The translations under genes and the position numbers were made by a program. The notes below the pieces were generated by a model. The model saw only the letters and a list, made by a program, of their open reading frames with translations, was not told the DNA's origin and ran no database searches. From a virus: 64,000 nt of DNA. The stretch lies in the IMG/VR virus record IMGVR_UViG_3300045988_182948. One strand, 5' to 3'. Positions 2,053 to 57,056 of the stretch are shown here, piece after piece (positions within the stretch are counted from its first letter, which is position 1; each line of letters opens with the position of its first letter).

Positions 2053-2613
2053 TCACTCTCCTTGTGTCAATCTTGATATATATTCTATTTTCAAATAGTC
2101 TAAATCAATTATTTCTCCTGAAACTTGATAAGCCCAGCTATCAAAGATAACTGATTTTAATAGTTCAGTATTGCTGATAATCACGAGTTTATTTATGGTC
2201 TGTTCAAGAATTAATCTTGTTATTTCATCCAATTCTTCATTTTTGTAATATGCCAAAGCAAACGTATCATGACAATCAGGATGTACTAAGTATCTCCTGT
2301 AATAGGGAATACTGCAAAAAATGGACTCAGCCCAATACATATAATTAACTTCTAAATAAGTTGATGGAATAGTATTACAACCATAACTCTTTAGAAAAGC
2401 TTTATCAGCTTCTTCAATTCTAACTCCATACTTGCATTTTTTTATTTCATCTTTAAATAATGGTTGGTGGTATATAGCTAAGGAAAGCCCTTGAGCTACA
2501 TAAAGCAGCTTGCTCATTTTTAAAGGCGAGAGATAGCATTCTAATTGTTTTTTATGAGTATAATCTACCATATAATATGCTAATTCTAATGCTGTATATT
2601 TTGCTTCTTTCAT
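2053..2613 (-). CDS. Panacea-domain (DUF4065, SocA-like) putative antitoxin
   Basis: The N-terminal region TALELAYYMVDYTHKK...KMSKLLYVAQGLSLAIYHQPLFKDEIKKCKYGV matches the Panacea consensus (KLQKLLYYAQG...LF.D.I.AW.YGPV). Confidence 0.5.
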   Translation of the reverse strand: MKEAKYTALELAYYMVDYTHKKQLECYLSPLKMSKLLYVAQGLSLAIYHQPLFKDEIKKCKYGVRIEEADKAFLKSYGCNTIPSTYLEVNYMYWAESIFCSIPYYRRYLVHPDCHDTFALAYYKNEELDEITRLILEQTINKLVIISNTELLKSVIFDSWAYQVSGEIIDLDYLKIEYISRLTQGE

Positions 2614-12892: not shown

Positions 12893-13065
12893 AAACCTAA
12901 TGTGACTTAGTGAAGCCTCTACAAACTATGTTTTGGCTTCTTTTTCATAAATATTTGCATTCTTCAACAAACTTTAGATTATAGAATAGAAATATAGAAA
13001 AATTTCCTAGTGATTTTATGTATGAGTTATCACTTGAAGAAATAGATTAAATAAAAATTATCAAG

Positions 13066-23515: not shown

Positions 23516-24181
23516 TTACTTCATCGAAAAATCTAATATCTTTATCTGATTATCTCTTTCTTTTGTCTTTATATATAAATCAAAATGATAAAACATTTCA
23601 TATAATGAATCTTCCTCATAACAAAATAGGAATTTCTTCTCCTGCAAATCAAGTATGGAATATACCCCTGTACTATTCCCTAAGAAATATTTTAATTCTA
23701 TTTTTCCCATAGTTCCAAATAAAGGATTATAGTTAGCCAAATAACTTAGATAGGGAGTGAAAACAGCAAATTCACAAAAGCCATACTCATCTATCAGAAT
23801 ATCTAAACAAAAAGATTCACCTTGATTCTTGTTTCTTAAAAGAGAAAAGTTATCACTATAATATAAAGAAGCCTTTGCCTTTTCTTTCTCCATTGGTAAA
23901 ACATTCATTTTCTTTAGGCTTTTCAAAATCTTTTTAAAATCATCACCCACTACAAATAGATGCCGAATACTTCCATAATTCAATTGATGGTTTCTTATAA
24001 GAATTTCTTCTTCAATACTTTTCAGGTATGTTTCTAGTTTCAAATCAAATAACCTCCATAAAAAAAGTGTCAGGCTTAGCACGACACTTAAAAGTATAAT
24101 ATCTATATAGAATCTGCTTTGGCTCCTTTCTTTTCTTGATTTGTTTTTTGAATGCTCTTGATAACATCTATTTTTACACAA
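23516..24181 (-). CDS. TM-anchored hypothetical protein (overlaps the upstream NTase gene by 79 nt)
   Basis: Single N-terminal TM helix FYIDIILLSVVLSLTLFLW. 221 aa. Confidence 0.4.
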   Translation of the reverse strand: MCKNRCYQEHSKNKSRKERSQSRFYIDIILLSVVLSLTLFLWRLFDLKLETYLKSIEEEILIRNHQLNYGSIRHLFVVGDDFKKILKSLKKMNVLPMEKEKAKASLYYSDNFSLLRNKNQGESFCLDILIDEYGFCEFAVFTPYLSYLANYNPLFGTMGKIELKYFLGNSTGVYSILDLQEKKFLFCYEEDSLYEMFYHFDLYIKTKERDNQIKILDFSMK

Positions 24182-25005
24182 TCTGAAACATAATCCTCAA
24201 TAAGAGAATTAAGTTTATCCAACGTTATATCATTAACTGTGAGAGAATTATTCTCCAGTAACTTGTTTATTTCACATTCGGCTTTTTTCACATATGTATC
24301 AGCCAAATAAATTGCTTCTGAATACTCTATTGGTGCTGTTTTATATTTCTTAATCTTATTTTTCTCTTTTATTGATAGAAAATCAAGATTCATAAGTGAT
24401 TCAAAGTTTACTTTTCCATCTAATCTAGCAACTTCTGAGACCATTTCAGATAAACGTGCAAGATGATGCAACTGCTTTGGGTTATATTTATAAATATCAA
24501 AAATTTCTTGTCCAGAATCTGTTCTCTTTTCAAGCCCCTTTCTTTTTTCATAAATAAATCCCTGCATTGACTTAACAAATCTTTTTACATCCCGATTTGA
24601 GATATCGTCTCTCATTTCCTTCAAAGATTTTAAAAATAATAAAGTTCTAACACGTTGGTATTCCTTATTTACATAGAAATATGGGGTATATAATAACTCC
24701 AGATATGTTGGATTCATCTTATAAAGAAGATTTCCTAATAATCTAATATCTTTCACTTCAATATGACTCTTATCATTCATGACAAGTTCTTTAGAAATCA
24801 TATTTGGTCTTTCAAGTAAGTCTTTAAGCGTTGGGATAATAAAGCACTTAACATCAAAATCACTGCTATAGTCGTCAGTATATTCGTCAAAACCATAATT
24901 CTGGGAACCTTGTAAACACATAAATGCAACATGATAATCAGTATTTTCTTTAAGCCAGTTCATTTTCTTTTTCATTTCATTTAATACCATTTGTTTTTTT
25001 GCCAT
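24103..25005 (-). CDS. Pol-beta-superfamily nucleotidyltransferase-fold protein
   Basis: GSQNYGFDEYTDDYSSDFDVKCF matches the GS-x(n)-DxD nucleotidyltransferase signature. Confidence 0.5.
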   Translation of the reverse strand: MAKKQMVLNEMKKKMNWLKENTDYHVAFMCLQGSQNYGFDEYTDDYSSDFDVKCFIIPTLKDLLERPNMISKELVMNDKSHIEVKDIRLLGNLLYKMNPTYLELLYTPYFYVNKEYQRVRTLLFLKSLKEMRDDISNRDVKRFVKSMQGFIYEKRKGLEKRTDSGQEIFDIYKYNPKQLHHLARLSEMVSEVARLDGKVNFESLMNLDFLSIKEKNKIKKYKTAPIEYSEAIYLADTYVKKAECEINKLLENNSLTVNDITLDKLNSLIEDYVSDCVKIDVIKSIQKTNQEKKGAKADSI

Positions 25006-33150: not shown

Positions 33151-33471
33151 TTATTTTTTTGTATCCATTTTCACTATGTAAAGAATATGAGAAGATAAAT
33201 AAAGATTGTAACAAGCATCTTGAAGATATTTTTCATCTGTTATGAGATAATTTTCTTTTGCCTTAATATCTTGTTTTATCTTCCATAATGCAACCTTGCC
33301 TGCACCCTTCAAATTGCAAAGGAGTTTTGCTGTCCTAAGACCAGTGACTTCTAAATCTGTATAAGTTACAATCTTTAAGGTAAGACTTTTGGAGAATTTG
33401 AAGGGTATTGAAACGAAACCATTTTGGTAGCAATACTCCAATACATAACTTTCTTTTTTCTCTTTCCACAT
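33151..33471 (-). CDS. hypothetical protein
   Basis: 106-aa ORF. Confidence 0.35.
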   Translation of the reverse strand: MWKEKKESYVLEYCYQNGFVSIPFKFSKSLTLKIVTYTDLEVTGLRTAKLLCNLKGAGKVALWKIKQDIKAKENYLITDEKYLQDACYNLYLSSHILYIVKMDTKK

Positions 33472-33487
33472 TTTTGAACCTCATATT

Positions 33488-33517
33488 TTATTAAAAAGAG
33501 AGGTATTAATCCTCTCT
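33488..33517 (-). terminator. terminator overlapping the flotillin stop codon
   Basis: AGAGAGG-TATTAAT-CCTCTCT hairpin plus T-run on the minus strand. Confidence 0.5.
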
Positions 33518-34963
33518 CTTATCATTACTCATTTTTTCCAATGCTTTCACTCCAACTAATGACCCAAGAATCTGATTAAGATTTAAGCCCAACCCTTGTT
33601 CCATTCCTGTATTTACTTGATGAGTTGTCTTCATGACATCCTCAATCAGTTTTGCGCTATTCCCTTCACCATACATTGTAATGTTGCCAATCTTTTCAAG
33701 TGGTTTGGCTGCCGCTTCAACTGCTTTTGGCCATGCATTGAAGTACATTTCTGCAATTGCTGCTTCGCCATATTTTTTCATCGCTTCAGCTTTTTTATCT
33801 AATGCTTCAGCTTCAGCAATACCTTTGGCTTCAATAGCCTTGGCTTCTGCTTCCCCTTTTGCACGGATACCTGAGGCTTCCTGCTCCATTTGATATTTTA
33901 AGGCTTCAGCTTGTGCTTTCTTGGCTTGAGCTTCTTTTTCCTGCTCAAATTTCCACGCTTCTGCATTTTGCTGACGTGCATATAAATCAGCCTCTGCTCT
34001 TTGCTGTGCAGCAAATTTTTCTGCTTCAGCTTGCTTCTTGATTTTTGCATCAAGTTCCTGTTCTGTAACTTCAACGTCTTTACGTCTCAATTCAATTTCT
34101 TTTTCCTGTCTCATAATATTTGCGTCAGCTGTTGCAATTTCAATTGCTTTACGAGACTGTTCCTGCTGAATTGTATATGCTGCATCTGCTTCAGCTTGTT
34201 TTGCATCTGCAGTCTTCTTTAATTCAGCTTTTTTGATAGCTAATTCATTATTCTTTTCTGCAATGATTGTTTCAGCAGCAATTTTTGCATCATTTGCTTC
34301 CTGGAATGCTTTTGACTGAGCCTGAGCAATATCTCTTTCACTCACAGCACGAGAAATTGCCGCATTTTTTTGAATCTTTACAATATTGTCAACCCCAAGA
34401 TTTTCAATAACACCATTGCCATCAACAAAATTCTGAACATTAAACGAAACAATATCCAAACCCATCTTTGCCAAATCAGGTTCAGCATTCTCCTTTACCA
34501 ATTCAGCAAACTTCTGTCTATCGGAAACCATTTCCTCAAGATTCATACGTCCTACGATTTCACGCATATTCCCTTCCAAAACTTCTCTTGCAACATTGGC
34601 AATATAATCAACTCTCTTATTCAAGAAGTTCTGTGCAGCTAATCCTAAACGTTCACTGTTATCACTAATCTTGACATTGACTGCTGCATCTACATTAATG
34701 TTGATATAGTCAGCAGTTGGTACAGCACTAGACGTTTTGACATCAATGGGAATTAACTGTAAATTCAATTCATCTTTCTTCTCTAAAAATGGAATTTTAA
34801 TTCCTGCTTTCCCAATTAAAACCTTTGGTTGTTTTCTCAGTCCTGAAATAATATATGCAGTGTCTGGTGATGCCTTGACATATCCTGTCAATACAATCAC
34901 TAAAATAAGAGCTCCTACTAAAACACCTGTAATCACTCCAGGATTCATTAAAAAATCTAACAT
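33506..34963 (-). CDS. flotillin / SPFH (band 7) family protein
   Basis: N-terminal TM, SPFH core, long Ala/Glu/Lys-rich coiled coil (EAEAKAIEAKGIAEAEAL...). Confidence 0.75.
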   Translation of the reverse strand: MLDFLMNPGVITGVLVGALILVIVLTGYVKASPDTAYIISGLRKQPKVLIGKAGIKIPFLEKKDELNLQLIPIDVKTSSAVPTADYININVDAAVNVKISDNSERLGLAAQNFLNKRVDYIANVAREVLEGNMREIVGRMNLEEMVSDRQKFAELVKENAEPDLAKMGLDIVSFNVQNFVDGNGVIENLGVDNIVKIQKNAAISRAVSERDIAQAQSKAFQEANDAKIAAETIIAEKNNELAIKKAELKKTADAKQAEADAAYTIQQEQSRKAIEIATADANIMRQEKEIELRRKDVEVTEQELDAKIKKQAEAEKFAAQQRAEADLYARQQNAEAWKFEQEKEAQAKKAQAEALKYQMEQEASGIRAKGEAEAKAIEAKGIAEAEALDKKAEAMKKYGEAAIAEMYFNAWPKAVEAAAKPLEKIGNITMYGEGNSAKLIEDVMKTTHQVNTGMEQGLGLNLNQILGSLVGVKALEKMSNDKRED

Positions 34964-35036
34964 AATCTACCTCCTTTCTTTTTATTCAATTGTTTCATTC
35001 TTATTTGTTAAACTTTCTTATTTCATGTCTTCACCT

Positions 35037-35070
35037 CAAAAAAAGAATGCAGACAGGTGCATTCTTTTTT
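35037..35070. terminator. bidirectional intrinsic terminator (A7 - hairpin AGAATGCA..TGCATTCT - T7)
   Basis: Seen in sequence. Confidence 0.55.
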
Positions 35071-35282
35071 TATATGCTTTGTCATTTATTTGCACCTGTC
35101 CTTTCTTTATGAGTCTATTATATCATTTATTTGTTATTTTTACAATAATTTTTTCTATATATTTATGAAAATAACAAATGTTTAACTGTTTTCCCTTTGC
35201 TGTCATTATATAAAGAAAAAGACATACCTCATTTGATACGTCTTTTCCTTATCATAATATAATATTTATAAACTATGGAACT

Positions 35283-35543
35283 TTATTCTACATAATTGCA
35301 TCTTTCAATCTTTACTTTATCAGAATGTTTCCATCCAATTGCTCTTGTCTTTGCCTGACACATTGGACAGCTGCAATGTATTTTACTTTTAGCAAGTCTG
35401 TGTGTTTGCCCATTTGTGAATTCCTCTAAAACTCCCTCACCATAACTATCCAAAATCTTTTTCTTTCTTTCAATAATCCTGAATTCATTCTTTCTAGAAA
35501 CTGCTCTATTATGTCTTTTTTCAGTATATGACATTGTCTTCAC
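35283..35543 (-). CDS. small basic Cys-containing protein (CSCPMC motif)
   Basis: 86-aa ORF. Confidence 0.35.
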   Translation of the reverse strand: MKTMSYTEKRHNRAVSRKNEFRIIERKKKILDSYGEGVLEEFTNGQTHRLAKSKIHCSCPMCQAKTRAIGWKHSDKVKIERCNYVE

Positions 35544-35698
35544 CTCACTGAATACTTATAAAAATCGTGAAAAGAAAGCCATTCACCTCTCCAAGTGAAC
35601 AGCCAATATTATACAGGTCCTCTCACGATTTCCATAATTCTATTTTACCATAGATTATTAGGATAAAGAAAAATAGAACTGTTGTATTCTATCATGAT

Positions 35699-35908
35699 TT
35701 ATATAATATAGATTTCACCTTTAACGATTTCATCATTATATAGCCCATTATAATAAATAATCTTTTTATCAGTTACATAATAGATTTCCAAATCATTAAT
35801 CTTGTTAAGAATTATTTTTTTATGTTTTAAGGAATCCTTAACTTCCTTAATGATTCTGCTTTCTTCAATATTGAATCCATTACTCTGTATTTCTAGTTTA
35901 TATTTCAT
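35699..35908 (-). CDS. small hypothetical protein
   Basis: 69-aa ORF. Confidence 0.3.
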   Translation of the reverse strand: MKYKLEIQSNGFNIEESRIIKEVKDSLKHKKIILNKINDLEIYYVTDKKIIYYNGLYNDEIVKGEIYII

Positions 35909-35935
35909 TATCTCACCTCCGTTCTTTTATTCTTT

Positions 35936-36538
35936 TTACTCTTTTAAACTCCTTATAAATACTTTCAGCAATCTTTCATCATATTGAGAAGATTCTTCCA
36001 ATAATCTCTGAATAGCCTCTTGCGTCGTTAGTGTTTGCTTGTAGCATCTTTGAGATGTTAAAGCATCATAACTATCTACAATTGCAACTATTTTTGCTTC
36101 TAAAGGGATAGTATCTCCCTTTAAATTCTGCAAATATCCACTCCCATTATTTCTTTCATGATGATATAAGACAATATTTTGGCAAACGCTTGCAAAATCA
36201 AAATCTTCATCTGTTTTACAGTATTTAAAAAGATTACAGAGATAATATGTTCCATATTGAGTATGATTTTGAATAATCTGATATTCCCTATTTGTTAATG
36301 TTTTCTTTTTTGAAAGAATTTCCAAAGGAATAGCAAGTTTCCCTATATCATGAACAAGAGCCGCCAATTCAACATGAAACTTAAATAAATCAGTTAAGTT
36401 TAACGAAGGGATATCCTTGTCCAATCTCTCAACAAATCTTTTTATATACATTGACACATTTTCTGAATGGTCGTTGAAAAAGTTTTTTTGAGAAGTGACA
36501 AGATGATTAAATTCATCTTCAACAGCTTTTGATATCAT
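35936..36538 (-). CDS. HD-GYP-type HD-domain phosphohydrolase
   Basis: The H...HDIGK metal-binding motif and HHERNNGSGY (GYP variant). Confidence 0.65.
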   Translation of the reverse strand: MISKAVEDEFNHLVTSQKNFFNDHSENVSMYIKRFVERLDKDIPSLNLTDLFKFHVELAALVHDIGKLAIPLEILSKKKTLTNREYQIIQNHTQYGTYYLCNLFKYCKTDEDFDFASVCQNIVLYHHERNNGSGYLQNLKGDTIPLEAKIVAIVDSYDALTSQRCYKQTLTTQEAIQRLLEESSQYDERLLKVFIRSLKE

Positions 36539-36732
36539 TTAAAAATCACCTCATTAAGATACTTTAGTACCTTTTATTTATTTAAATTTATAATACTTAA
36601 CTTATTACTTTCTTTTGCAAAGTATAAAATCATATAAAAACCTGTTACATATTTACAATTTCTTTAAATCATGCTACATTTATATTATAAATCAACTCTT
36701 ATTTCAAGAGTTTCAAAAGGGAGGAATGTATT

Positions 36733-37536
36733 ATGAAGCTCAGTTTTAAGAAATTTTTTGTTGGGGTATCAATTTTAGCATTAACTTTTGCTGCTATAAA
36801 TGTAACCCCAGTATTCGCAGCAGATTTAGATGATATTTATGAAAAAGAAATATCTGAATCTATTATTGCTGGTGACGGAAGTGCTGAAAACCCTTATATT
36901 TTAAATGAAGAAACCTCGCCGATGTTTACACAGTATTTAGAAGAAAAGGGTAAAGAAGCTATAGTGTCTTTACAAGTTCCAACAGTATCAACATTTGGTT
37001 TATTTGATGGCATTTTAAGTGGTACATCTCACGGAACTGCACCAAATGGTGCCTATTGGAAATATACGAGTGGAGCACCAAATGTTAATAGTAATGGTAA
37101 TGTATGGATGAAAAGTGTTGAATATATGACTTACAATGAAGTAAAAAATATGGTGGCAGGGTTTAATTCAAGTTCATATGTTTCAGTGTTTAAAGGTAGT
37201 ATTACAGAAATTGCTGGATGGAGCTTAACTAAAGCTGTTAATCATCTTATAAACAAAGGAATACAAAAGAGTATAGCAACAGCTTTTGCAACTTGGCTTG
37301 GTTGCGGAACAACTTTTATTGGTGCATATCTTATATTAGAAGAATACAGTACTTTTACGAAACAAAGACCATATATAAGAGCCCATGAAGCTGGTGTAGG
37401 ACTTATTCATGCAGCATATAATACTTCTTATCAAGGAAAATGGTATGGTCATTCTGCATCTGATTTATGGCCAACTTATCCAATTGCTAAAGACCCTGGA
37501 ATAATGTATGGAAAAGGAACTTATGTGAAAAAATGA
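36733..37536 (+). CDS. secreted protein (signal peptide ...PVFAAD)
   Basis: N-terminal signal peptide. 267 aa. Confidence 0.5.
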   Translation: MKLSFKKFFVGVSILALTFAAINVTPVFAADLDDIYEKEISESIIAGDGSAENPYILNEETSPMFTQYLEEKGKEAIVSLQVPTVSTFGLFDGILSGTSHGTAPNGAYWKYTSGAPNVNSNGNVWMKSVEYMTYNEVKNMVAGFNSSSYVSVFKGSITEIAGWSLTKAVNHLINKGIQKSIATAFATWLGCGTTFIGAYLILEEYSTFTKQRPYIRAHEAGVGLIHAAYNTSYQGKWYGHSASDLWPTYPIAKDPGIMYGKGTYVKK

Positions 37537-37820
37537 TATTTTACTTTTTAATTGAAACCATTACTTTATTATTAATCTTTATTAATATTCTAAAACTTAT
37601 TAAAAAAAATGATTTAAAAAAATACATTATATTTATTGAGGGAGGATTAATAGTTTCTTTTATTTCAATATATTTGTTTGTATATTTCAATGGATATCTT
37701 CCTCATATCACAGAAGAATTAAATAAAAATGGATTTTTATATCCTTTTCATTTAATTTCTATTCTCGTGTGGGTAGTTTTAAATAGTATTATTCTTCATA
37801 AGCAAAAAAAAAATAAATAG
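37533..37820 (+). CDS. small membrane protein (3 TM), translationally coupled to the upstream secreted protein
   Basis: ATGA overlap with the upstream stop. Hydrophobic throughout. Confidence 0.45.
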   Translation: MIFYFLIETITLLLIFINILKLIKKNDLKKYIIFIEGGLIVSFISIYLFVYFNGYLPHITEELNKNGFLYPFHLISILVWVVLNSIILHKQKKNK

Positions 37821-38188
37821 AATCTTACTCTATAAATGAATATCATTTATAGAGTCTTTTTTATTTCTAATTCACTTAAATCTAAGTATTGAAATATAAA
37901 TATATTGCGAACGTTCCTATGAACCCTAACTCTTCAAGTGTCTAACATAGGCTTTTCCAAGTTTTTCTTCTGTTTCTCAATTGATATGAGTCATTGTCCC
38001 CTATTGCCTTTTACGTCGGTCTCATGTTACTGGCACAACTTCGCAGATACATAAGTTCTTTTGTTATGACTGATTTAAAATTTACCTTCTTTGATTATAT
38101 CTGATAAAGTTATTGTTCTCTTGTATTGTGAAATCACTTATGGGCACAAAATGCCCAGATGTCTTTTCATTATAATAAATTTCTTCTT

Positions 38189-38263
38189 TGGTGTGAAAGA
38201 CGGGAATCGAACCCGTATAGTTGGAGCCACAATCCACCGCACTACCATTGTGCTACAATCACC
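38189..38263 (-). tRNA. tRNA-His (GUG) with G-1; two T:T mismatches in the acceptor stem
   Basis: Manual fold: T-arm ACGGG/TTCGATT/CCCGT, anticodon loop TTGTGGC, encoded CCA. Confidence 0.5.
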
Positions 38264-38316
38264 ATCATTATTTTATAAAGCAACACGCAAAAAGTGAGTG
38301 TTCGTCATAAAATATT

Positions 38317-38391
38317 TGGTACCCAATATAGGAATCGAACCTATAATTGATGGTTCGTAGCCATCTGTTTTATCCATTAGACTAATTGGGT
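38317..38391 (-). tRNA. tRNA-Arg (ACG)
   Basis: Perfect 7-bp acceptor, anticodon loop CTACGAA, encoded CCA. Confidence 0.7.
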
Positions 38392-38399
38392 ATGTTTTT

Positions 38400-38473
38400 T
38401 GGAGGCCTCGACCAGACTTGAACTGGTATAAATAGGGTTGCAGCCTATTGCATAGCCATTCTGCCACGAGGTC
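38400..38473 (-). tRNA. tRNA-Cys (GCA)
   Basis: Anticodon loop CTGCAAC. One A:C mismatch in the acceptor stem. Confidence 0.6.
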
Positions 38474-38517
38474 GCAAATATTTTCTTTTTGTTTTACAAT
38501 ATTTTAACTTTATATTT

Positions 38518-39597
38518 TCATTTAATGACCCATTGAAGTTTTGAATCATCAGTAAAATATAATTCTCCTCCATAATCAGAGCACCAACTTTTGTCCAAAT
38601 TGACTTTTTCTTCATTGTTTTTCAATTCTATTTCATAATCTTGTTTCATCTGAGAAACTAAATTATCTTCTCGTGAAATTGAAATATTACTCTTCAAAGT
38701 TTTGTTTATAATAACATTTCCACTAATAAGACTATCTTTAAATTCATCTATAGTGGCTTTTTTAATGATTTTTTTATATATTTTTTTATTTGCACTTTCA
38801 TAACAACAAATCTGTAATACTTTGCGTATTTGAAAATTAGGCTCATATCTTCCTGCTAAATAAATAATTATTGGGTTTACATAGTTACTAAATGTAAAAA
38901 GTCTTTTTTCTTTATCATCTAATTTTAGAGGAAATAAAATGATATAATCATATTTTTTATTTTCATCTAATTCACATAAAGAAGAACAAGTGTCCTCAAC
39001 TCCATTATAGTTATAGATAATTTCATAATTCAAAAAATAATTATTTATAAGTTTTTTAATATCCTCATACTCTTTTATTTCTTTCAAAGGCTTTGCTTTC
39101 ATTTTCTTTTGATTAAGAACATCAATAATAATATTTATATATTCTTCTGTGACATTTTTATTATTAATAAATATAGGCTCAGATGTAAAATCGGTTGTAC
39201 GATATAACTGAATTGTTTTTTCTCTATATATTTCATTTAAAACGTTAGCTACTTTATCAATATGATTGACATAAATATCCTTTTTCAAGAAAATATTTTC
39301 AATATAAAACTTTAAAACATCTTGCCAATTATTATTAACAAATAAATTTTCCATATCTTCTGGTGATGTAACATAAAAAAGTGTTTTTAACTTATCCATC
39401 AAAATCTCTGATTTTATAAATGAGTCTTTTGTAAACATACTACTTAATTTATTATAATTGTCTATAGTTTCCTCTACATTTTCTCGAAGATGTTTTCCAT
39501 GAAAAGCTTCTTCAAGGTTATTATAATATTTTTCCTTATACAAAAAACCATCTGAATATGTCGGTGACAGATTTAACTCTTTAATATTTGTTATCAT
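38518..39597 (-). CDS. hypothetical protein embedded in the tRNA array (very AT-rich; Lys/Asn/Ile-rich)
   Basis: 359-aa ORF lying between tRNA-Cys and the next tRNA block. Confidence 0.45.
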   Translation of the reverse strand: MITNIKELNLSPTYSDGFLYKEKYYNNLEEAFHGKHLRENVEETIDNYNKLSSMFTKDSFIKSEILMDKLKTLFYVTSPEDMENLFVNNNWQDVLKFYIENIFLKKDIYVNHIDKVANVLNEIYREKTIQLYRTTDFTSEPIFINNKNVTEEYINIIIDVLNQKKMKAKPLKEIKEYEDIKKLINNYFLNYEIIYNYNGVEDTCSSLCELDENKKYDYIILFPLKLDDKEKRLFTFSNYVNPIIIYLAGRYEPNFQIRKVLQICCYESANKKIYKKIIKKATIDEFKDSLISGNVIINKTLKSNISISREDNLVSQMKQDYEIELKNNEEKVNLDKSWCSDYGGELYFTDDSKLQWVIK

Positions 39598-39874
39598 ATA
39601 ACACCTCTCTCGTCCATCTAAAGGCTTTATAGTAGCCTTTTAAAAACTAGTTAAAATAAATCAATACTCCTTAAAAACCCCTGCTGGCATCTGCCATATA
39701 TATTCTGGAGTGCTTTTCAGTATTCTGACTTACCATGCCTATATCAGAAGTTTGATGAACTGAAAAGAATTTTTCGGATAAGGTTTTACATGGATATTTA
39801 TATACCTTATACCTGTAGAGGAAAATTTTAGAATATGTTATCAGCAAAAACAATTTATATCCTAAATAATATTT

Positions 39875-39913
39875 GGTGCTCATAGTAGGATTTGAACCAT
39901 CATATGGGCGTTT
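39875..39913 (-). other. tRNA 3'-half-like fragment (TGG + acceptor + degenerate T-arm)
   Basis: TGGTGCTCATAGTAGGATTTGAACCATCAT. Only the T-loop and acceptor are recognisable. Confidence 0.3.
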
Positions 39914-39989
39914 TGGTAGGAATAATAGGAATCGAACCTATATTGCACGATTATCGGTCGTGAGTACTCACCAGTTGTACGATACTCCT
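39914..39989 (-). tRNA. tRNA-Ile (GAU) with C at position 33
   Basis: Anticodon arm CACGA-CCGATAA-TCGTG. Good acceptor, D-arm and T-arm. Confidence 0.6.
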
Positions 39990-39992
39990 ATA

Positions 39993-40066
39993 TGGTATCC
40001 GTTGGTGGTAATGCTCCACCGTCTTCAACTTGTAAGGATGATGTTCTTCTTTTAAACTAAACGGAT
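39993..40066 (-). tRNA. tRNA-Val (UAC) with an atypical T-loop (AGCATTA)
   Basis: Perfect acceptor and T-stem GGTGG/CCACC. Anticodon loop CTTACAA. Confidence 0.5.
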
Positions 40067-40067
40067 A

Positions 40068-40144
40068 TGGTCTCGATAAAAGGATTTGAACCTTTACAAA
40101 CTCGGTCCCAGGCCGAGTGCACTACCAAATTATGCTATATCGAG
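40068..40144 (-). tRNA. tRNA-Pro (UGG) with C at position 33
   Basis: Anticodon arm CTCGG-CCTGGGA-CCGAG. Perfect acceptor. Confidence 0.6.
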
Positions 40145-40270
40145 AGGAAAGAGAATATCTCTTCCGTATTTATGGTGGACCAGACATAATATGTTTATCT
40201 ATTACTACAATAGACTGGACTCCGAGATACTTCCCAATATCTTATCTTTACCTTATTTCATGAAGGAAAC

Positions 40271-40345
40271 TGGCACCTCTTGAAGGAATCGAACCCACAT
40301 CGTGGAGGTAGAAACTCCATGCTCTATCCATTAAGCTAAAGAGGT
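40271..40345 (-). tRNA. tRNA-Arg (UCU)
   Basis: Anticodon loop TTTCTAC. Perfect acceptor. Confidence 0.65.
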
Positions 40346-40548
40346 AATAATGATAACTACTTATCGCAATAGCCTTAGCATCTGACTCCTTATACAGAAT
40401 ATACTTTCATTTTCTATTCTTTCATGCACTTTCAAATATACTAAGAAAATATATATTTTCGTCAAAGCCAACCTCCTAGCTCGTGACTATCTGCATCCAT
40501 TGCTTATGCAGTTTCCACATGGTTTTATTTAATAAATTATATAATCAT

Positions 40549-40625
40549 TGGTGGACGATATAGGATTCGAACCTATGACCAGTCGGTTATGAGCCGACAG
40601 CTCTGACCATCTGAGCTAAACGTCC
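40549..40625 (-). tRNA. tRNA-Met/Ile2 (CAU)
   Basis: Anticodon arm GTCGG-CTCATAA-CCGAC. Confidence 0.65.
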
Positions 40626-40637
40626 ATATTTTTAAAA

Positions 40638-40716
40638 TGGTGGAAACTTTGGAATTCGAATCCAACTGATTTCCTGTGTGCAAAACAGGTGACCACACCT
40701 AGCAGTCCCAGTTCCC
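40638..40716 (-). tRNA. tRNA-Ala (UGC) with G3:U70
   Basis: Anticodon loop TTTGCAC. Acceptor GGGAACT/AGTTTCC gives the G3:U70 identity pair. Confidence 0.6.
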
Positions 40717-40728
40717 AATAATACATTA

Positions 40729-40816
40729 TGGCGCTGACTATAGGACTCGAACCTATGCTAGATTTACATCTAGTACGGTTTAGCAAACCGCTGCTTTACC
40801 ACTCAGCCAAGTCAGC
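40729..40816 (-). tRNA. tRNA-Ser (GCU), class II
   Basis: Anticodon loop TTGCTAA. Long variable arm CTAGAT-TTAC-ATCTAG. Perfect acceptor. Confidence 0.6.
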
Positions 40817-40824
40817 AAAAATAT

Positions 40825-40911
40825 TGGTACTCCCAATGGGAGTCGAACCCATACGAGCTTTTGCCCACAGAAGTTTAAGTTCTGTATGTCTACCGATTTC
40901 ATCATAGGAGT
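40825..40911 (-). tRNA. tRNA-Leu (UAA), class II
   Basis: Anticodon arm CAGAA-CTTAAAC-TTCTG. Confidence 0.6.
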
Positions 40912-40914
40912 ATT

Positions 40915-40999
40915 TGGTCTTCTCGAAGAGATTTGAACTCTTACGCTATAAAGCACTAGTTTCTAAAACTAGCATGTCTACCTATTCCATCACGAGAAG
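40915..40999 (-). tRNA. tRNA-Leu (UAG), class II
   Basis: Anticodon arm CTAGT-TTTAGAA-ACTAG. Perfect acceptor. Confidence 0.65.
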
Positions 41000-41004
41000 A
41001 TGAT

Positions 41005-41081
41005 TGGTGGTTTCAGATGGACTTGAACCAACGCTACGAGAAGTTTCAGTTATCTGCTCTACCAGATTGAGCTATGAAACC
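41005..41081 (-). tRNA. tRNA-Phe (GAA)
   Basis: D-arm GCTC..GAGC. Anticodon loop CTGAAAC. Perfect acceptor. Confidence 0.7.
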
Positions 41082-41095
41082 AGATGATAAAATAT

Positions 41096-41170
41096 TGGCA
41101 CCTCTGTAAGGAGTCGAACCTTAAGTTTTGGTTTTGGAGACCAATGTGTTCCCTTTTACACTACAGAGAT
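41096..41170 (-). tRNA. tRNA-Trp (CCA)
   Basis: Anticodon arm TTGGT-CTCCAAA-ACCAA. Confidence 0.7.
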
Positions 41171-41172
41171 AT

Positions 41173-41249
41173 TGGCATCAGGGAGAGGGCTCGAACCTCT
41201 AAATGTGGGAGTCAAGGTCCCATGTGCTTACCAGTTTCACCACCCTGAT
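41173..41249 (-). tRNA. tRNA-Gln (UUG) with C at position 33
   Basis: Anticodon arm TGGGA-CCTTGAC-TCCCA. Perfect acceptor. Confidence 0.6.
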
Positions 41250-41363
41250 ATCTAAATAGATTTAGTATACTTGGAAGTGGTTGAACCCTCATACCCTCTA
41301 TTAGAAGTCGAGTGCATTACCAACTTTGCTACAAGTACAATATATAATTATGAAATTTTTTAA

Positions 41364-41450
41364 TGGTGGGCCCCACTGGATTCGAACCAGCAATGTTTCT
41401 AATGTCACAGATTTACAGTCTGCTTCCTTCACCAATTTGGATAGAGACCC
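41364..41450 (-). tRNA. tRNA-Tyr (GUA), class II
   Basis: Anticodon loop CTGTAAA. 3-bp D-stem and long variable region. Acceptor has two G:U pairs. Confidence 0.55.
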
Positions 41451-41457
41451 ATATGTT

Positions 41458-41540
41458 TGGCGCTCAGTGAGGGACTCGAACCCCCAAGTCCTTTCTGACC
41501 AACTGTTTTCAAGACAGCACGACTATGGAATTACCCAATG
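41458..41540 (-). tRNA. degenerate tRNA-like sequence (Ser-UGA-like anticodon arm; acceptor 5' strand and D-arm not foldable)
   Basis: Good TGG, acceptor 3' strand and T-arm (GGGGG/TTCGAGT/CCCTC). Anticodon arm CTGT-CTTGAAA-ACAG. No complementary 5' acceptor was found. Confidence 0.3.
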
Positions 41541-41750
41541 GTTGTTGACAAGAAAGGTCTCCTAAGATGATATAGTCTTAAACTTTATATAAATAAGCGC
41601 ACCATACAGGTGTATCATCTCAGGTTTTTCAAGCCTCAAGGTTTCTGGTCTGCCAATTATCTACTATAAACCTTTTTTCGATTTAATAAATAATCATAAG
41701 ATATAATGTTATTCTATAAAATAACTATCCAACAATGAATACAATATATT

Positions 41751-41825
41751 TGGTATCCGAGGTGGGATTCGAACCCACGATTACCTGATAGAGCGCTAAA
41801 GCGTAAACTGCTTGCCAACTCGGAC
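41751..41825 (-). tRNA. tRNA-like gene, anticodon arm not resolved
   Basis: Perfect acceptor and T-arm (GTGGG/TTCGAAT/CCCAC) with a 40-nt core that did not fold canonically by hand. Confidence 0.35.
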
Positions 41826-41830
41826 ATATT

Positions 41831-41907
41831 TGGCGGACCCTACAGGACTTGAACCTGCGACCCTTCGCTTAACAGGCGAACGCTCTAACCAACTGAGCTA
41901 AAGGTCC
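41831..41907 (-). tRNA. tRNA-Asn (GUU)
   Basis: Anticodon arm TTCGC-CTGTTAA-GCGAA. Canonical D-arm. Confidence 0.7.
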
Positions 41908-41916
41908 ATATAATTT

Positions 41917-41991
41917 TGGAGTGAGTAAAGGGTATCGAACCCTCATCCTCTGCTTGGAAGGCAGATATACTAACCGTTGTACTATACTCAC
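41917..41991 (-). tRNA. tRNA-Gly (UCC)
   Basis: Anticodon arm TCTGC-CTTCCAA-GCAGA. Perfect acceptor. Confidence 0.7.
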
Positions 41992-41998
41992 ATTCATA

Positions 41999-42074
41999 TG
42001 GTGCCATCTGAGAGATTCGAACTCCCAACCAACTGATTACAGGTCAGCTGCACTTCCAGTTGTGCTAAGGTGGC
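41999..42074 (-). tRNA. tRNA-Thr (UGU) with C at position 33
   Basis: Anticodon loop CCTGTAA. D-arm GCAC..GTGC. Confidence 0.55.
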
Positions 42075-42078
42075 AAAT

Positions 42079-42153
42079 TGGCGGAACATAGGAGAATTGA
42101 ACTCCTATCTCTTGATAGACAGTCAAGTATATTTTCCATTATACGAATGCTCC
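42079..42153 (-). tRNA. tRNA-Asp (GUC), position 37 is U
   Basis: Anticodon arm CTTGA-CTGTCTA-TCAAG. Confidence 0.55.
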
Positions 42154-42154
42154 A

Positions 42155-42231
42155 TGGTTGCAGAGGCAGGATTTGAACCTGCGACCTCAGGATAATGAGT
42201 CCTGCGAGCTACCAAACTGCTCTACTCTACG
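42155..42231 (-). tRNA. tRNA-Met (CAU), initiator-like (C1:A72 mismatch)
   Basis: Anticodon arm CAGGA-CTCATTA-TCCTG. Canonical D- and T-arms. 1:72 is unpaired (C/A), as in bacterial tRNA-fMet. Confidence 0.55.
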
Positions 42232-42337: not shown

Positions 42338-42366
42338 ATTATAACATATAATATAAAATTAGTCAA
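42338..42366 (-). promoter_or_regulatory. perfect sigma-A consensus promoter (TTGACT-17-TATAAT) driving the tRNA array
   Basis: Read on the minus strand it gives TTGACT aattttatattatatgt TATAAT, about 100 nt upstream of the first tRNA. Confidence 0.65.
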
Positions 42367-43557: not shown

Positions 43558-45270
43558 TTATTCATCCCACCAGTTATAATTTTTAATGTCATCTTCAATC
43601 TGATGAGAGCTTGAGGATGATTGTTTTTTTATTTGCCTGATTGCTTCACTTTCTTGAATTCCCGGAGAAAACCATGCTGGTTTATCTGAGTTGTTCTTCA
43701 AATCATTAAACAAAAATGTTAGAAAGCAGTTTATTTGATTATCTGGAGTCTTGAAAGAATATCCAGAGGTTTTTATTCTATCAAGAATATTAAGCATAAT
43801 TGAATCAAAGGATGCCTGATGAATAATAAGTTTTTCAAGATTCATTATTAACAAATCCCCTTCTATCATTTTTGCTTCTTTACTCATATAGAATTTCTTA
43901 AAGAGCTTCAGTTTATTGAAGCAGGCATTGAGAAAGTCTTTATCAGTGTTTTCTATAAAGATTGAATTATAAATAGAAGAATTGATTTCATTAATTAAAT
44001 TAATTAATAAAGAATCGTTTTTATTATTTTCAGTATAAGTATTTAAAGTTTTATTAATGTTGATATCTTTTTCGCTATTTTGTTTCTTTCTTTTTGAAGA
44101 AATTGTTTCTTTCATATCTGATGAAATGATGGCTCTTGATGGAGTCTTGATATCTGTCAAATTCTCTGAATTATGGCTCTTTTCAATTTTTTCTTCATCA
44201 TTATAAGTCAAATTCACGAAATTGTGGCTCTCATCTAATATGTCATAATCATCAAATTGTGGCTCACTGAATTCTTTCATGTCTATATCTTCAAGGTATT
44301 GCTTTACAAATTGATATATTTTATCTGGGAAGTTTCTTGTTCCATTTTCCCATTTGGAATATGTCTGTTTATAAAGGCTTAATGAATATTTTTTATTTAT
44401 AGCCTCTACTATCTGTTTTTGGGTTAAGTTATGCTTTAAGCGAAGCTGTTTAACATATGTATAATTTCTTTTATTTTTATTGATAATTAAATCTTCTTTG
44501 AGTTGGTCCATGCGACTCTTTAGATATAGTTTTTTGTTTTTGCTGTCTAAGCTTTCAAATTCTTCAACATTATCTTCAAAGTTGAAAAGTTTTAATAGAT
44601 AGAAACGGGTATCCTGTGAAAATGCTCTATATTCAAATAATAAACCACAGGCTTTTAAAAGATATCTTCCTCTTTTTAATGCTGACTGTCCAAGCCCTAA
44701 TTTCTTTTCCTGAGTTTCAAGAGATTCTTGGAAGTATATTCTTTCTTTGTCATCCACAAAATAATTCATTTGAGATAAACACATTGTATCAAAGTATATA
44801 GAATATTGAAGTTTTGTAGCTAGAGGTAGATTGTTATAAATATCATCAAATAATTCATTTGGAAACCTAAAGAAATTGTAACTATCTAAATCTGTTTCAT
44901 AATAAAACTCATCTGTTTCATCTTTTTTATTATAGTTATATAGATATATCTTATTATTTCCAACGCTTCGCTTATAGTTGATGAGTCCAACCCTCTTTAA
45001 ATCTGCTCTTGCTCGGCAACATGTTGATTCACTAATTTTTAATTTATTCATTATATCAGAATCTGAGTAGATAATATAAGGACCACTGTTATCTTTATAA
45101 GTGGTAATGATATATCTGTTTAAATAGAGAGAATACATAAACTTTGCTGGAACAGAAAGTTTTTTGAATCTATTATCTGAAAATAAGACTTTTGGTATAG
45201 ATAAGAAAGCATCTATTTTTGTTGTATCATTAATATTATAGTATTTAGATTCTTTATCCATAGAAAACAC
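43558..45270 (-). CDS. RepA_N-family replication initiator with an internal XRE-like HTH
   Basis: The N-terminal FLSIPKVLFSDNRFKKLSVPAKFMYSLYLNR...GLINYKR matches the Firmicutes plasmid RepA_N signature. A central HTH is LTQKQIVEAIN. A TATAAT with RBS GGGAGG lies immediately upstream. Confidence 0.6.
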   Translation of the reverse strand: MFSMDKESKYYNINDTTKIDAFLSIPKVLFSDNRFKKLSVPAKFMYSLYLNRYIITTYKDNSGPYIIYSDSDIMNKLKISESTCCRARADLKRVGLINYKRSVGNNKIYLYNYNKKDETDEFYYETDLDSYNFFRFPNELFDDIYNNLPLATKLQYSIYFDTMCLSQMNYFVDDKERIYFQESLETQEKKLGLGQSALKRGRYLLKACGLLFEYRAFSQDTRFYLLKLFNFEDNVEEFESLDSKNKKLYLKSRMDQLKEDLIINKNKRNYTYVKQLRLKHNLTQKQIVEAINKKYSLSLYKQTYSKWENGTRNFPDKIYQFVKQYLEDIDMKEFSEPQFDDYDILDESHNFVNLTYNDEEKIEKSHNSENLTDIKTPSRAIISSDMKETISSKRKKQNSEKDININKTLNTYTENNKNDSLLINLINEINSSIYNSIFIENTDKDFLNACFNKLKLFKKFYMSKEAKMIEGDLLIMNLEKLIIHQASFDSIMLNILDRIKTSGYSFKTPDNQINCFLTFLFNDLKNNSDKPAWFSPGIQESEAIRQIKKQSSSSSHQIEDDIKNYNWWDE

Positions 45271-56102: not shown

Positions 56103-57056
56103 ATGGTAGCAATGGGCAAAAACACAAAAGTAATTACACTCTATAATCAAAAAGGAGGCGTTGGTAAAACAACAACAACAATTAATCTCGCTCAAGTTCT
56201 AGGGAGTACCTTTAATAAAAAAGTATTAATTATTGATAATGATGCTCAAAACTCTCTTAGCTTTCTGGCAAATATACAAATAAGAAATAATGGAGCTGTA
56301 GAAGATGAAGATGGATTAAAGACATTAGGGTGGCTGGAACAGATGTTTCAGTTATACGGAGATGTTCCAACAGTTCGAGATATTCAGGAAACAATTATAA
56401 CTCCAACATATCAAAAATCGGAGAGAATTGAAGGAACCATTGAGTGGGATATAGTCGAGAAAAAATTTGCGTTCGATATGATTCCTGGAACTGGAAAAGA
56501 CTTATCTTTGGCTGAATTGATTTTTATCACGCCCAACGATGAACCTTTTATTCTTAAGCCAGAAAATAGAAAATTGGCGCCATATGTCTTGAAAGTTATC
56601 ATTGAGCAAATAAAGAAATACTTTGATTATGATTATATCTTAATTGACTGTCCTCCATCACTAGGTATCTTAAGTATGGGAGCTCTAGTTGCATCAGATT
56701 ATTTAATTATACCAACAACAAGTGATATGCTTTCAACGATAGGGATTCAAACAATTATAGACAATCTTAAGGAATTACACTTATATGTACCAGACTTTAA
56801 TATATTAGGGGTTTTGTTTAATTGCTATTCAGATACAAAATATGATAATGAGTTGATAGAAGATGTAAGAAATTTTGGAGACTCTCAAGGAATATCTGTA
56901 TTTGAAGTGAAAATTCCTAAGAAAAATCAAATGAGAATGGTAAGTTCTGAAGAGATTATAGCAGTTCTCAAAAACGAGAAGGCTTTTAAGAGTTATACTG
57001 AGTCAATTATTGACCTTGCTCAAGAAATTATAAAGAAAAGTGAAGGGGGAGAATAG
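56103..57056 (+). CDS. parA: ParA/Soj-family partition ATPase
   Basis: Deviant Walker [15 protein letters not shown] and IIDCPPSLG. Confidence 0.85.

Follow-up and report, generated by a model that had tools for sequence, protein, structure and literature searches.

The DNA analysed here (the window) is a stretch of 64,000 nucleotides from the IMG/VR virus record IMGVR_UViG_3300045988_182948, in which a dense cluster of tRNA genes lies next to the gene of a replication initiator (Table 1). The cluster comprises 22 intact tRNA genes, all on the minus strand and within 4 kb, which makes it a phage tRNA array, and is interrupted by the gene of an ORFan protein. One tRNA with U34 is present for each four-codon box served by the array (Ala, Gly, Leu, Pro, Thr and Val), and the four-codon Ser box is represented in the window strain only by a remnant of tRNA-Ser(UGA). 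A promoter-like site, with 11 of 12 consensus matches plus a TG extension, precedes the first tRNA of the array by approximately 107 nt.

Table 1. Features of the tRNA array and its surroundings (positions in the window).
Feature	Position	Strand	Remarks
Phage tRNA gene array	38189..42231	-	21 ARAGORN tRNAs, an Infernal-only Val, a degenerate Glu and a truncated Ser
Gene of 359-aa ORFan protein	38518..39597		inside the array
tRNA-Ile(GAU)	39914..39989	-	loop CCGAUAA; C33 at 39956, C32 at 39957; 58.3 bits; CCA encoded
tRNA-Val(UAC)	39993..40066	-	U33; T-loop AGCAUUA; D-loop without GG; Rfam 49.4 bits; missed by ARAGORN
tRNA-Pro(UGG)	40068..40144	-	loop CCUGGGA; C33 at 40111; 61.4 bits; CCA encoded
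tRNA-Gln(UUG)	41173..41249	-	loop CCUUGAC; C33 at 41216; 51.9 bits; CCA encoded
tRNA-Ser(UGA), 3′ remnant	41458..41525	-	aligned with strains L001, L003 and L005, where the gene is intact
tRNA-Glu(UUC), degenerate	41751..41825	-	corrupted D/anticodon arm; Rfam 28.9 bits, just under threshold
tRNA-Thr(UGU)	41999..42074	-	loop CCUGUAA; C33 at 42042; 59.1 bits; CCA encoded
tRNA-Asp(GUC)	42079..42153	-	U37, loop CUGUCUA
Initiator-like tRNA-Met(CAU)	42155..42231	-	C1xA72 mismatch; U37, loop CUCAUUA
Sigma-70-type promoter match	42338..42366	-	near-consensus TTGACT, 17 nt, TG-TATAAT; consensus scan only
RepA_N/HTH replication initiator	43558..45270	-	Pfam; adjoins the array; basis for host identification and for the search for relatives

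U33 is regarded as almost invariant in elongator tRNAs, in which it forms the U-turn and is recognised by enzymes such as the bacterial t6A37 machinery. Four tRNAs of the array (Ile-GAU, Pro-UGG, Gln-UUG and Thr-UGU) carry C32-C33 and lack this canonical U33. ARAGORN and Infernal alignments to Rfam RF00005 independently give the same 7-nt minus-strand anticodon loops for these genes, identical to those obtained by manual folding in an earlier sequence-only reading of the window; the Infernal inspection of anticodon-loop alignments that it had called for places C at position 33 in all four. That reading had also described well-formed stems in the four genes and U33 in the remaining 17 or so tRNAs, both of which were borne out: the stems are intact, and the other 18 intact tRNAs (17 predicted by ARAGORN and the Infernal-only Val-UAC) have U33. 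The four genes match the RF00005 model over its full length (positions 1-71) with 51.9-61.4 bits, and they are not low scorers when set against a family threshold of 29 bits and a range of 43-71 bits for the whole array. They also have a purine at position 37 (A, G, A and A, respectively), the GG of the D-loop, and the T-loops UUCGAUU, UUCAAAU, UUCGAGC and UUCGAAU. An alternative fold restoring U33 was considered and rejected, since both programs agree on the register.

The window is part of a phage or phage-plasmid of approximately 200 kb and 31% GC, which is present in isolates of Coprobacillus cateniformis as well as in many gut metagenomes. Many samples have yielded contigs of the element that are 180-206 kb long. 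Its RepA_N protein is 99% identical to proteins of C. cateniformis isolates and identifies this species as the predicted host. Proteins encoded beside the array have matches in phage families; among them are an exonuclease V/Dda-like helicase, a RecJ-like exonuclease and CobT/CobS-like proteins. An RNA-repair nucleotidyltransferase of the RlaP type and a protein with a PIN domain are also encoded in the window. A comparison of ten window proteins (including PIN7, RlaP-like and SIR2) with defence-system models revealed nothing specific and only generic HD-domain similarity. Searches of GenBank phages gave a tRNA-Asn fragment as the sole nucleotide match, with no close relative, and protein matches of at most 34% identity; no relatives of the 359-aa gene product or of RepA_N were detected by protein search in IMG/VR, and PLSDB plasmids gave no match. 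Inversions between strains adjoin the tRNA array, and no convincing inverted repeats that could account for them were found beside it.

All four C33 genes are intact and retain C33 in 10 of 10 strains of the element. Within the same array, the Ser-UGA of the window strain is truncated, having lost its 5′ acceptor strand and a portion of the D-arm through a 57-nt deletion, and roughly half of the strains carry a corrupted Glu-UUC, which is intact in others (alignment to L003 and L005); these two genes fit the definition of a tRNA pseudogene in some strains, whereas the four C33 genes do not. In syntenic relatives (L132-L135 below), whose RepA_N identity is 38-47%, the stems of the orthologous tRNAs have undergone compensatory changes, and C33 is retained in Pro, Gln and Ile of diverged relatives. 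In Ile-GAU, L135 has an identical anticodon arm, C33 included, despite 21% divergence; in Pro-UGG, C33 is kept in L132-L134, where the acceptor, anticodon and T stems have changed in a compensatory way; and in Gln-UUG it is kept in L133 and L134, where an anticodon-stem U-A pair has become C-G, with U33 in L135. The window Pro-UGG is further a member of a diverse family of Pro-UGG tRNAs with C33 in IMG/VR, 27 of which fold into a cloverleaf with covariation at 16 of 21 pairs. By their sequences, the C33 genes are conserved and look like working genes rather than decaying copies.

On the other hand, the base at position 33 itself is not fixed. Thr-UGU has C33 in L132 and L134 and U33 in L133 and L135, and across the clade position 33 flips between U and C in Thr, Pro, Gln, Phe and Cys. 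When the 18 isoacceptors shared by the window and L135 (mean identity 75%) were compared, differences were observed at position 33 in 5 of 18, at position 32 in 4 of 18 and in the anticodon in none of the 18, so that position 33 turns over at the same pace as position 32, a free pyrimidine position. The C33 set consists of Ile, Pro, Gln and Thr in the window versus Ile, Phe and Cys in L135. The clade-wide share of C33 (14/85 = 0.16) is close to the neutral C/(C+T) value of 0.20 at four-fold sites of window genes. The nearer relatives L133 and L134 have the C33 set of the window, which is weak evidence either way because their tRNAs are only about 13% diverged.

Phage arrays in general also break the U33 rule. 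Among 2,019 IMG/VR tRNAs, position 33 is occupied, besides U, by C in 47 cases, A in five and G in none, and at the resulting C33 rate of 2.2-2.3% in about 2,000 phage tRNAs the probability of at least four C33 among 23 tRNAs is about 0.0015-0.0018. Nine of 140 dense arrays sampled, including that of the window, have at least four; the window array thus lies in the upper tail yet is not unique. C33 clusters by genome, with most arrays having none, some reaching 20-40%, and arrays with 4-6 C33 tRNAs in existence. In one Ile-GAU family of IMG/VR, 10 of 103 members (10%) have C33, and the nearest neighbours of these sequences are U33 sequences. A frequency of 59% C33 in Pro-UGG is valid for a rare arm subclass only, and samples not seeded with Pro give 4 of 101. 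Other C33 tRNAs co-occur positively with C33 Pro-UGG; alongside C33 Ile-GAU they account for 0 of 55 versus 20 of 998, which is uninformative. In mycobacteriophage Bxz1, both Val-GAC and Val-CAC have U32-C33 according to ARAGORN. Our literature search found no paper treating position 33 in phage tRNAs. C33 is a recurrent, genome-clustered minority state of phage tRNA clusters generally, and the tRNAs concerned otherwise evolve like working tRNAs. The previous judgement that a recurrent U33-to-C change is unusual therefore stands in that the pattern is not noise, but has to be qualified in that the same minority state recurs in phage tRNAs, including those of Bxz1. Annotation pipelines that penalise non-U33 tRNAs may under-call or mislabel real phage tRNAs.

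The explanation that we favour, with roughly even confidence, is that the four are functional elongator tRNAs of a lineage in which the requirement for U33 has been relaxed to one for a pyrimidine. U33 and C33 would therefore interconvert over evolutionary time, with the remainder of each tRNA under purifying selection, and U and C at this position appear to be nearly equivalent to selection in the lineage. The four genes would form part of a near-complete tRNA set of the C. cateniformis element; the single-strand array seems to sit behind a strong promoter (a consensus match), the four genes encode CCA, and their tRNAs are probably expressed, charged and used. C33 would still offer a pyrimidine at the turn and may be as compatible with decoding as it is in other systems. 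In yeast tRNA-Leu(GAG), the natural C33 does not impair function and its reversion to U has minor effects only (PMC13492127), and many eukaryotic initiator tRNAs normally carry C33 (PMC5041475). The window resembles yeast tRNA-Leu(GAG) and the initiator tRNA-Met of multicellular eukaryotes in having C33 in tRNAs that are expressed and functional there (PMC13492127, PMC5041475, PMC8887486) and presumably so here. However, the eukaryotic cases are single fixed exceptions, whereas the window has four elongator tRNAs in one array of a bacterial virus, U and C replace each other between related phages, and other phages have comparable multi-C33 arrays.

The shifting set of C33 isoacceptors, the neutral-like share and the weak correlation between C33 fraction and flanking GC content (rho 0.25, P 0.003) fit a relaxed U/C position and speak against a single anticodon-specific nuclease. 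Two points run counter to relaxation. Genome clustering needs a lineage-specific cause, and simple drift names none; moreover, T-to-C changes in a genome of 28% GC outside its tRNAs, the most AT-rich of those with C33-rich arrays, go in the direction opposite to the mutation bias. A side effect of C33 could be an altered action of host enzymes on the anticodon loop, for example through loss of t6A37 on Ile and Thr. If the constraint is indeed relaxed, the array would show the extent to which a virus bringing its own tRNAs can do without the "universal" tRNA design. If position 33 is instead under selection, it would be a simple marker of tRNA-centred conflict between phage and host. Because the element resides in cultured isolates, the Coprobacillus phage is a tractable example for either reading.

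Such selection, which the sequence-only reading had also raised, is a possible but rather unlikely explanation in the form of counter-defence, in which C33 is favoured because a host factor recognising U33 or the U33-N34 junction acts poorly on phage tRNAs with C33. This factor may be an anticodon-loop nuclease or a toxin needing a modification that C33 blocks (t6A37 or wobble-U). Consistent with the latter, E. coli TsaBCDE cannot place t6A on a U33C tRNA (PMC8887486) and Elongator needs U33 (PMC11096365); however, ANN-decoding (t6A) tRNAs of IMG/VR are not enriched in C33 (2.5% versus 1.9% of others, P 0.5), and the Kluyveromyces lactis gamma-toxin, the one nuclease for which the papers examined report a test of this change, cleaves U33C normally (PMC2275089). 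In metagenomes, with tRNA density as proxy, C33 is commoner in dense, phage-like arrays (22 of 323 tRNAs) than at low-density loci (5 of 250), and this concentration, the genome clustering, the repeated origin of C33 in Ile-GAU and the presence of the RlaP-type and PIN-domain proteins in the window are in line with counter-defence. Yet C33 isoacceptors differ between related phages and are broad across phages, whereas known anticodon nucleases are isoacceptor-specific. That C33-rich arrays mark lineages which encounter, or are armed against, a host factor recognising the anticodon loop on its U33 side is a tentative idea to which we assign a low probability. Should counter-defence prove true, U33C would be a general signature readable directly from sequence.

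The closest published argument is that of van den Berg et al. (eLife 2023, PMC10264068), who proposed that anticodon-loop differences allow phage tRNAs to escape anticodon nucleases such as VapC, PrrC and colicins. Their supplementary table flags loop "mutations" in Val-GAC and Val-CAC of cluster C1 mycobacteriophages, two tRNAs that about 89% of 161 C1 phages possess and that have U32-C33 in Bxz1. The window is similar to the C1 phages (such as Bxz1 and Rizal) in the large array, the big phage and loops that depart from the canonical or host form. That study, which does not mention position 33 anywhere, builds on a well-characterised host with known VapC and MazF cleavage sites, whereas in the window the change affects the universally conserved U-turn base in four isoacceptors and its turnover among relatives looks nearly neutral. 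For rescue from PARIS and from retron-associated PtuAB by T5-type phage tRNAs, experimental proof has reportedly been obtained for one isoacceptor each (Lys and Tyr). The window, by comparison, contains no tRNA-Lys. Where T5-type phages are discussed in two reports, differences between phage and host tRNA sequences are described as keeping translation going (PMC11464382, PMC11555353).

It is improbable that C33 serves to tune decoding or modification, altering loop dynamics or wobble-U modification such that single U34 tRNAs better read whole boxes or the codons preferred by the phage. Three of the four tRNAs (Pro-UGG, Thr-UGU and Gln-UUG) have U34, the array has one U34 tRNA for each four-codon box it serves, U33 contacts positions 35 and 36 (PMC5041475), and the wobble-U modification enzyme Elongator requires U33 (PMC11096365). 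Nevertheless, Ile-GAU has G34 and the other U34 tRNAs of the array keep U33, the tRNAs carrying C33 are swapped between relatives, and IMG/VR shows no excess of C33 among tRNAs with U34 (17 of 888, versus 14 of 588 with G34).

The chance that C33 is a host-derived trait, with phage copies mirroring C33 in chromosomal isoacceptors of Coprobacillus or Erysipelotrichaceae, is very small. Clustering by genome could in principle reflect host lineages; however, the elongator tRNAs of cells are described as having a nearly invariant U33 (PMC5041475), C33 falls on different tRNAs in related phages, and a small cellular control of 179 tRNAs contained no C33 among 103 bacterial Thr-UGU seeds and two doubtful cases among 76 others. 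Harder still to credit is C-to-U editing, in which a phage or host enzyme would deaminate C33 to U33 in the transcript, so that T-to-C changes would be invisible to selection and accumulate in lineages possessing the enzyme. Such editing would explain why C33 clusters by genome, affects a broad set of isoacceptors and seems to turn over neutrally, but no deaminase or RNA ligase domain was detected among the window ORFs scanned (50 of 63 ORFs of at least 90 aa against Pfam and two more against the defence library only, in 64 kb of the approximately 200-kb element). We know of no precedent for editing of tRNA C33 in bacteria or phages. Finally, the earlier suggestion of decaying copies or pseudogenes is extremely unlikely: the array does hold the truncated Ser-UGA, the corrupted Glu-UUC, an Arg-UCU copy with a poor T-arm (43 bits) and oddities such as three tRNAs with U37 and the non-canonical T-loop of Val, but the four genes reach 52-61 bits, have intact stems, encode CCA and are intact in every strain, and both the compensatory changes in relatives and the strong covariation of the C33 Pro family contradict decay.

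Further unusual features noticed in the sequence-only reading are also present. Its non-TTCRA T-loop AGCATTA of tRNA-Val is that of Val-UAC, a gene conserved at 97-99% in nine other strains. U37 is present in three tRNAs of the array, including the two for which it had been reported, Asp-GUC and the initiator-like Met-CAU. The Asp-GUC loop is identical in L132-L135, and Asp-GUC accounts for 11 of the 21 pyrimidine-37 cases in the IMG/VR sample. The counterpart of the initiator-like Met-CAU in L135 has the loop CUCAUUC and the anticodon stem GGG/CCC.

The array comprises 21 tRNA genes predicted by ARAGORN, and four of them, for isoleucine, proline, glutamine and threonine, carry C instead of U at position 33 of the anticodon loop. 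These C32-C33 loops, proposed by the sequence-only reading, are the same in the ARAGORN structures and in the loop columns of the Rfam tRNA covariance model. The Infernal alignment places C33 in all four genes with 51.9-61.4 bits (model threshold, 29 bits), and they are ordinary scorers because the whole array spans 43-71 bits. The remaining 17 ARAGORN tRNAs have U33, as that reading had also stated, and a tRNA-Val(UAC) has it too. Its other observations were borne out as well, including U37 in Asp-GUC and the initiator-like Met-CAU (C1xA72) by ARAGORN and Rfam, and the T-loop AGCATTA of tRNA-Val by Infernal.

Features of the window and their coordinates
Feature	Coordinates	Strand	Details
tRNA array	38189-42231	-	21 genes (ARAGORN)
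tRNA-Ile-GAU	39914-39989	-	loop c-c-gat-a-a (ARAGORN); C33 at 39956; 58.3 bits
tRNA-Pro-UGG	40068-40144	-	loop c-c-tgg-g-a (ARAGORN); C33 at 40111; 61.4 bits
tRNA-Gln-UUG	41173-41249	-	loop c-c-ttg-a-c (ARAGORN); C33 at 41216; 51.9 bits
tRNA-Thr-UGU	41999-42074	-	loop c-c-tgt-a-a (ARAGORN); C33 at 42042; 59.1 bits
tRNA-Val(UAC)	39993-40066	-	Infernal only, missed by ARAGORN; U33; T-loop AGCAUUA; D-loop without GG
tRNA-Ser(UGA) remnant	41458-41525	-	
tRNA-Glu(UUC)	41751-41825	-	
Pyrimidine-37 tRNAs	42079-42231	-	
Orphan tRNA 3' fragment	39876-39913	-	
Inversions beside array	33151-39913		
RepA_N initiator	43558-45270	-	adjoins tRNA array
ParA ATPase	56103-57056	+	
RlaP-family 'RNA repair pathway' nucleotidyltransferase	24103-25005	-	
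PIN7-domain protein	14411-15256	-	
Panacea (SocA-like) antitoxin domain	2053-2613	-	weak match, 24.2 bits, just below cutoff

All four genes are kept with C33 in ten strains of the element (the window and L001-L009), with at most one polymorphic site scored per gene; for Ile, the one second allele scored is a longer ARAGORN call. The array can lose genes, since tRNA-Ser(UGA) has lost its 5' part by a 57-nt deletion in the window strain while remaining intact in other strains, and tRNA-Glu(UUC) has a corrupted D/anticodon arm in the window and about half of the strains while being intact in others; the C33 genes are not those lost. In addition, diverged syntenic relatives (L132-L135 and L137) were reached via RepA_N homologues of 38-47% identity, and their orthologous tRNAs are 65-95% identical to those of the window. 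Pro-UGG keeps CCUGGGA in L132-L134 while its acceptor stem has changed on both sides from CUCGAUA/UAUCGAG to AGGGAUA/UAUCCCU, an anticodon-stem C-G pair has become U-A and the T stem has also changed on both sides. The Gln-UUG loop of L133 and L134 is still CCUUGAC, where a U-A pair has become C-G, and the C33 arm of Ile-GAU is identical in L135 despite 21% divergence. The retained loops and two-sided stem changes point to working tRNAs kept by purifying selection. The earlier suggestion that the C33 copies might be decaying is contradicted by their retention in ten strains, by decay falling on Ser(UGA) and Glu(UUC), and by the compensatory stem changes in relatives; that they are pseudogenes appears very improbable.

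Position 33 itself is labile in this clade. In Thr-UGU it is C in the window, L132 and L134 but U in L133 and L135; L135 has U33 in Pro and Gln and C33 in Phe-GAA and Cys-GCA; and the Gln loop of L137 is UCUUGAC. Among the 18 isoacceptors shared by the window and L135 (mean identity 75%), position 33 differs in five, position 32, which is freely C or U in all tRNAs, in four, and the anticodon in none. The C33 share across the clade is 14/85 (0.16); for comparison, four-fold degenerate sites in the genes of the window have a C/(C+T) of 0.20. A neutral two-state site at an equilibrium of 0.20 would be expected to differ in ~32% of cases and to be C in both in ~4%, the observed values being 28% and 6%. 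The window's C33 set is common to nearer relatives, which says little about selection because whole array blocks, including spacers, are still ~90% identical.

The frequency of C33 elsewhere was estimated with IMG/VR scan patterns that allowed either pyrimidine at position 33, ARAGORN then being run on the returned loci; all IMG/VR and metagenome rates refer to the loci listed, at most 120 per scan, were seeded on particular tRNAs and carry statistics that ignore kinship. The Thr- and Ile-seeded IMG/VR samples contained 47 C33, 5 A33 and no G33 among 2,019 tRNAs of the loci listed, or 39/1,805 C33 (2.2%) by unique sequence. With seeds allowing C or U, C33 was found among the loci listed in 2/102 Thr-UGU, 10/103 Ile-GAU (same arm as the window's), 1/101 Gln-UUG and 46/78 Pro-UGG tRNAs with the arm CUYGG-CYUGGGA-CCRAG; the last figure arises because that arm is a rare subclass, and samples seeded on other tRNAs gave 4/101 for Pro-UGG among the loci listed. 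Each C33 Ile-GAU sequence is nearest to a U33 sequence, which implies several independent origins, and 27 diverse C33 Pro-UGG tRNAs fold as cloverleaves with two-sided changes at 16 of 21 pairs. Beside a C33 Pro, 12.8% of the other tRNAs had C33, versus 5.5% beside a U33 Pro (P 0.007; among the loci listed). In the metagenome loci listed, C33 was found in 22/323 tRNAs of dense arrays versus 5/250 in low-density loci, and in the dense arrays it was limited to 6 of 17, reaching 6 of 23 tRNAs. Across 140 dense arrays, 80 had no C33 tRNA, 25 had one, 19 two, seven three, four four, four five and one six, and the C33 fraction rose weakly with flanking GC (rho 0.25, P 0.003). Among the C33-rich arrays, the window has the highest AT content; eight others (metagenome loci L620, L700 and L711; IMG/VR loci L575, L522, L507, L508 and L601) have 4-6 C33 per 12-27 tRNAs, varied isoacceptors and background GC of 33-55%. 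U32-C33 also occurs in a cultured phage, mycobacteriophage Bxz1, in its tRNAs Val-GAC and Val-CAC.

We see about an even chance that the four genes encode functional tRNAs and belong to a lineage that tolerates either pyrimidine instead of a strict U33. U and C at position 33 would then drift while the rest of the tRNA stays conserved, and altered modification of the anticodon loop would be a likely side effect. C33 is compatible with decoding: when yeast tRNA-Leu(GAG), which naturally has C33, is reverted to U33, the effects are minor (PMC13492127), and many eukaryotic initiator tRNAs normally have C33 (PMC5041475). C33 is an anti-determinant of bacterial t6A37 synthesis, a U33C tRNA being left unmodified by E. 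coli TsaBCDE (PMC8887486), and Elongator requires U33 (PMC11096365). The main alternative, in the framework of van den Berg et al. (PMC10264068), is that selection favored C33 for weakening the action of a host nuclease or modification-dependent toxin. Although it is favored by the specificity of C33 for phage arrays, its genome-level clustering, its repeated origin and the T-to-C changes within a very AT-rich genome, this alternative seems rather unlikely considering that C33 lacks isoacceptor specificity, turns over among relatives, is not enriched in ANN decoders or U34 tRNAs of the IMG/VR sample and matches neutral composition in its share. K. lactis gamma-toxin cleaves a U33C stem-loop normally (PMC2275089). 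Tuning of decoding, C-to-U editing and a host-derived trait have at best a slight chance each; in a small cellular genome sample, C33 was found in 0/103 seed Thr tRNAs, with two doubtful cases among 76 other tRNAs, and U33 is described as near-invariant in cellular tRNAs (PMC5041475).

Phage tRNA arrays whose anticodon loops differ from those of the host are already known, and in itself the window's array is nothing unusual for a large phage. Published datasets contain C33 tRNAs without comment: in the eLife supplement of van den Berg et al., 'mutations' is the only label given to the Bxz1-type Val tRNAs, the paper does not mention position 33 (PMC10264068), and full-text literature searches found no paper discussing C33, U33C or position 33 with phage tRNAs. 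Systematic U33 relaxation in some phage tRNA arrays has apparently not been described before, and the window's array would provide a clear, experimentally accessible example.

The window (GC ~31%) encodes proteins matching phage families, such as an exonuclease V/Dda-like helicase, a RecJ-like exonuclease and CobT/CobS-like proteins, as well as a topoisomerase, a Y-family polymerase and a SIR2 protein. No close relative was found in GenBank phages, IMG/VR (by protein) or PLSDB. The product of a 359-aa gene within the array recurs unchanged in 932 blocks of the assembly collection, on contigs of up to 180-206 kb, and the sample names point to human-gut studies. Several Coprobacillus cateniformis isolates and MAGs encode proteins that match RepA_N at 99% identity, and the element, of which 64 kb were inspected, is accordingly a ~200-kb phage or phage-plasmid of C. 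cateniformis. RepA_N, ParA and the presence in several isolate genomes suggest that it is kept as a plasmid-like prophage. The RlaP-family, PIN7 and Panacea-like proteins are possible players in RNA-centred conflict, and the tRNA-targeting toxin FaRel2 comes from Coprobacillus (bioRxiv 10.1101/2024.07.05.602228).

Strains with the identical 359-aa gene differ by inversions beside the array. In L001, L007 and L009 the inverted block runs from a 106-aa gene to tRNA-His; in L002, L004, L006 and L008 it contains the 359-aa gene, tRNA-Cys and tRNA-Arg(ACG), and its junction makes the Arg and Ile 3' ends overlap. The breakpoints showed no long inverted repeats, and either genuine recombination at tRNA ends or assembly artefacts could account for the inversions. 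Directly downstream of tRNA-Ile lies the orphan fragment, made up of a T-arm and the acceptor 3' strand with its CCA end, which recombination probably left behind. At the array start of L132-L134 (about 12900-13040), a 95-nt gene called tRNA-Ile(UAU) by ARAGORN stands where the window has the initiator-like Met-CAU, its odd length suggesting an insertion or a mis-call.

Neither G18G19 nor the T54-Psi55-C56 motif is present in tRNA-Val(UAC), which is 97-99% conserved over the ten strains; it would therefore lack the elbow contact normally made between D-loop and T-loop. A pyrimidine at position 37, which is near-universally a purine, is a further recurrent oddity of phage tRNAs; it occurs in Asp-GUC, Glu-UUC and the initiator-like Met (window, L003 and L133-L135), is conserved in relatives, and Asp-GUC makes up 11 of 21 cases among the IMG/VR loci listed. 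The window's array has no tRNA-Lys; AAA is the commonest of the codon families tallied in sampled ORFs (730 AAA, 347 AAG), and Lys-UUU is present in L137.
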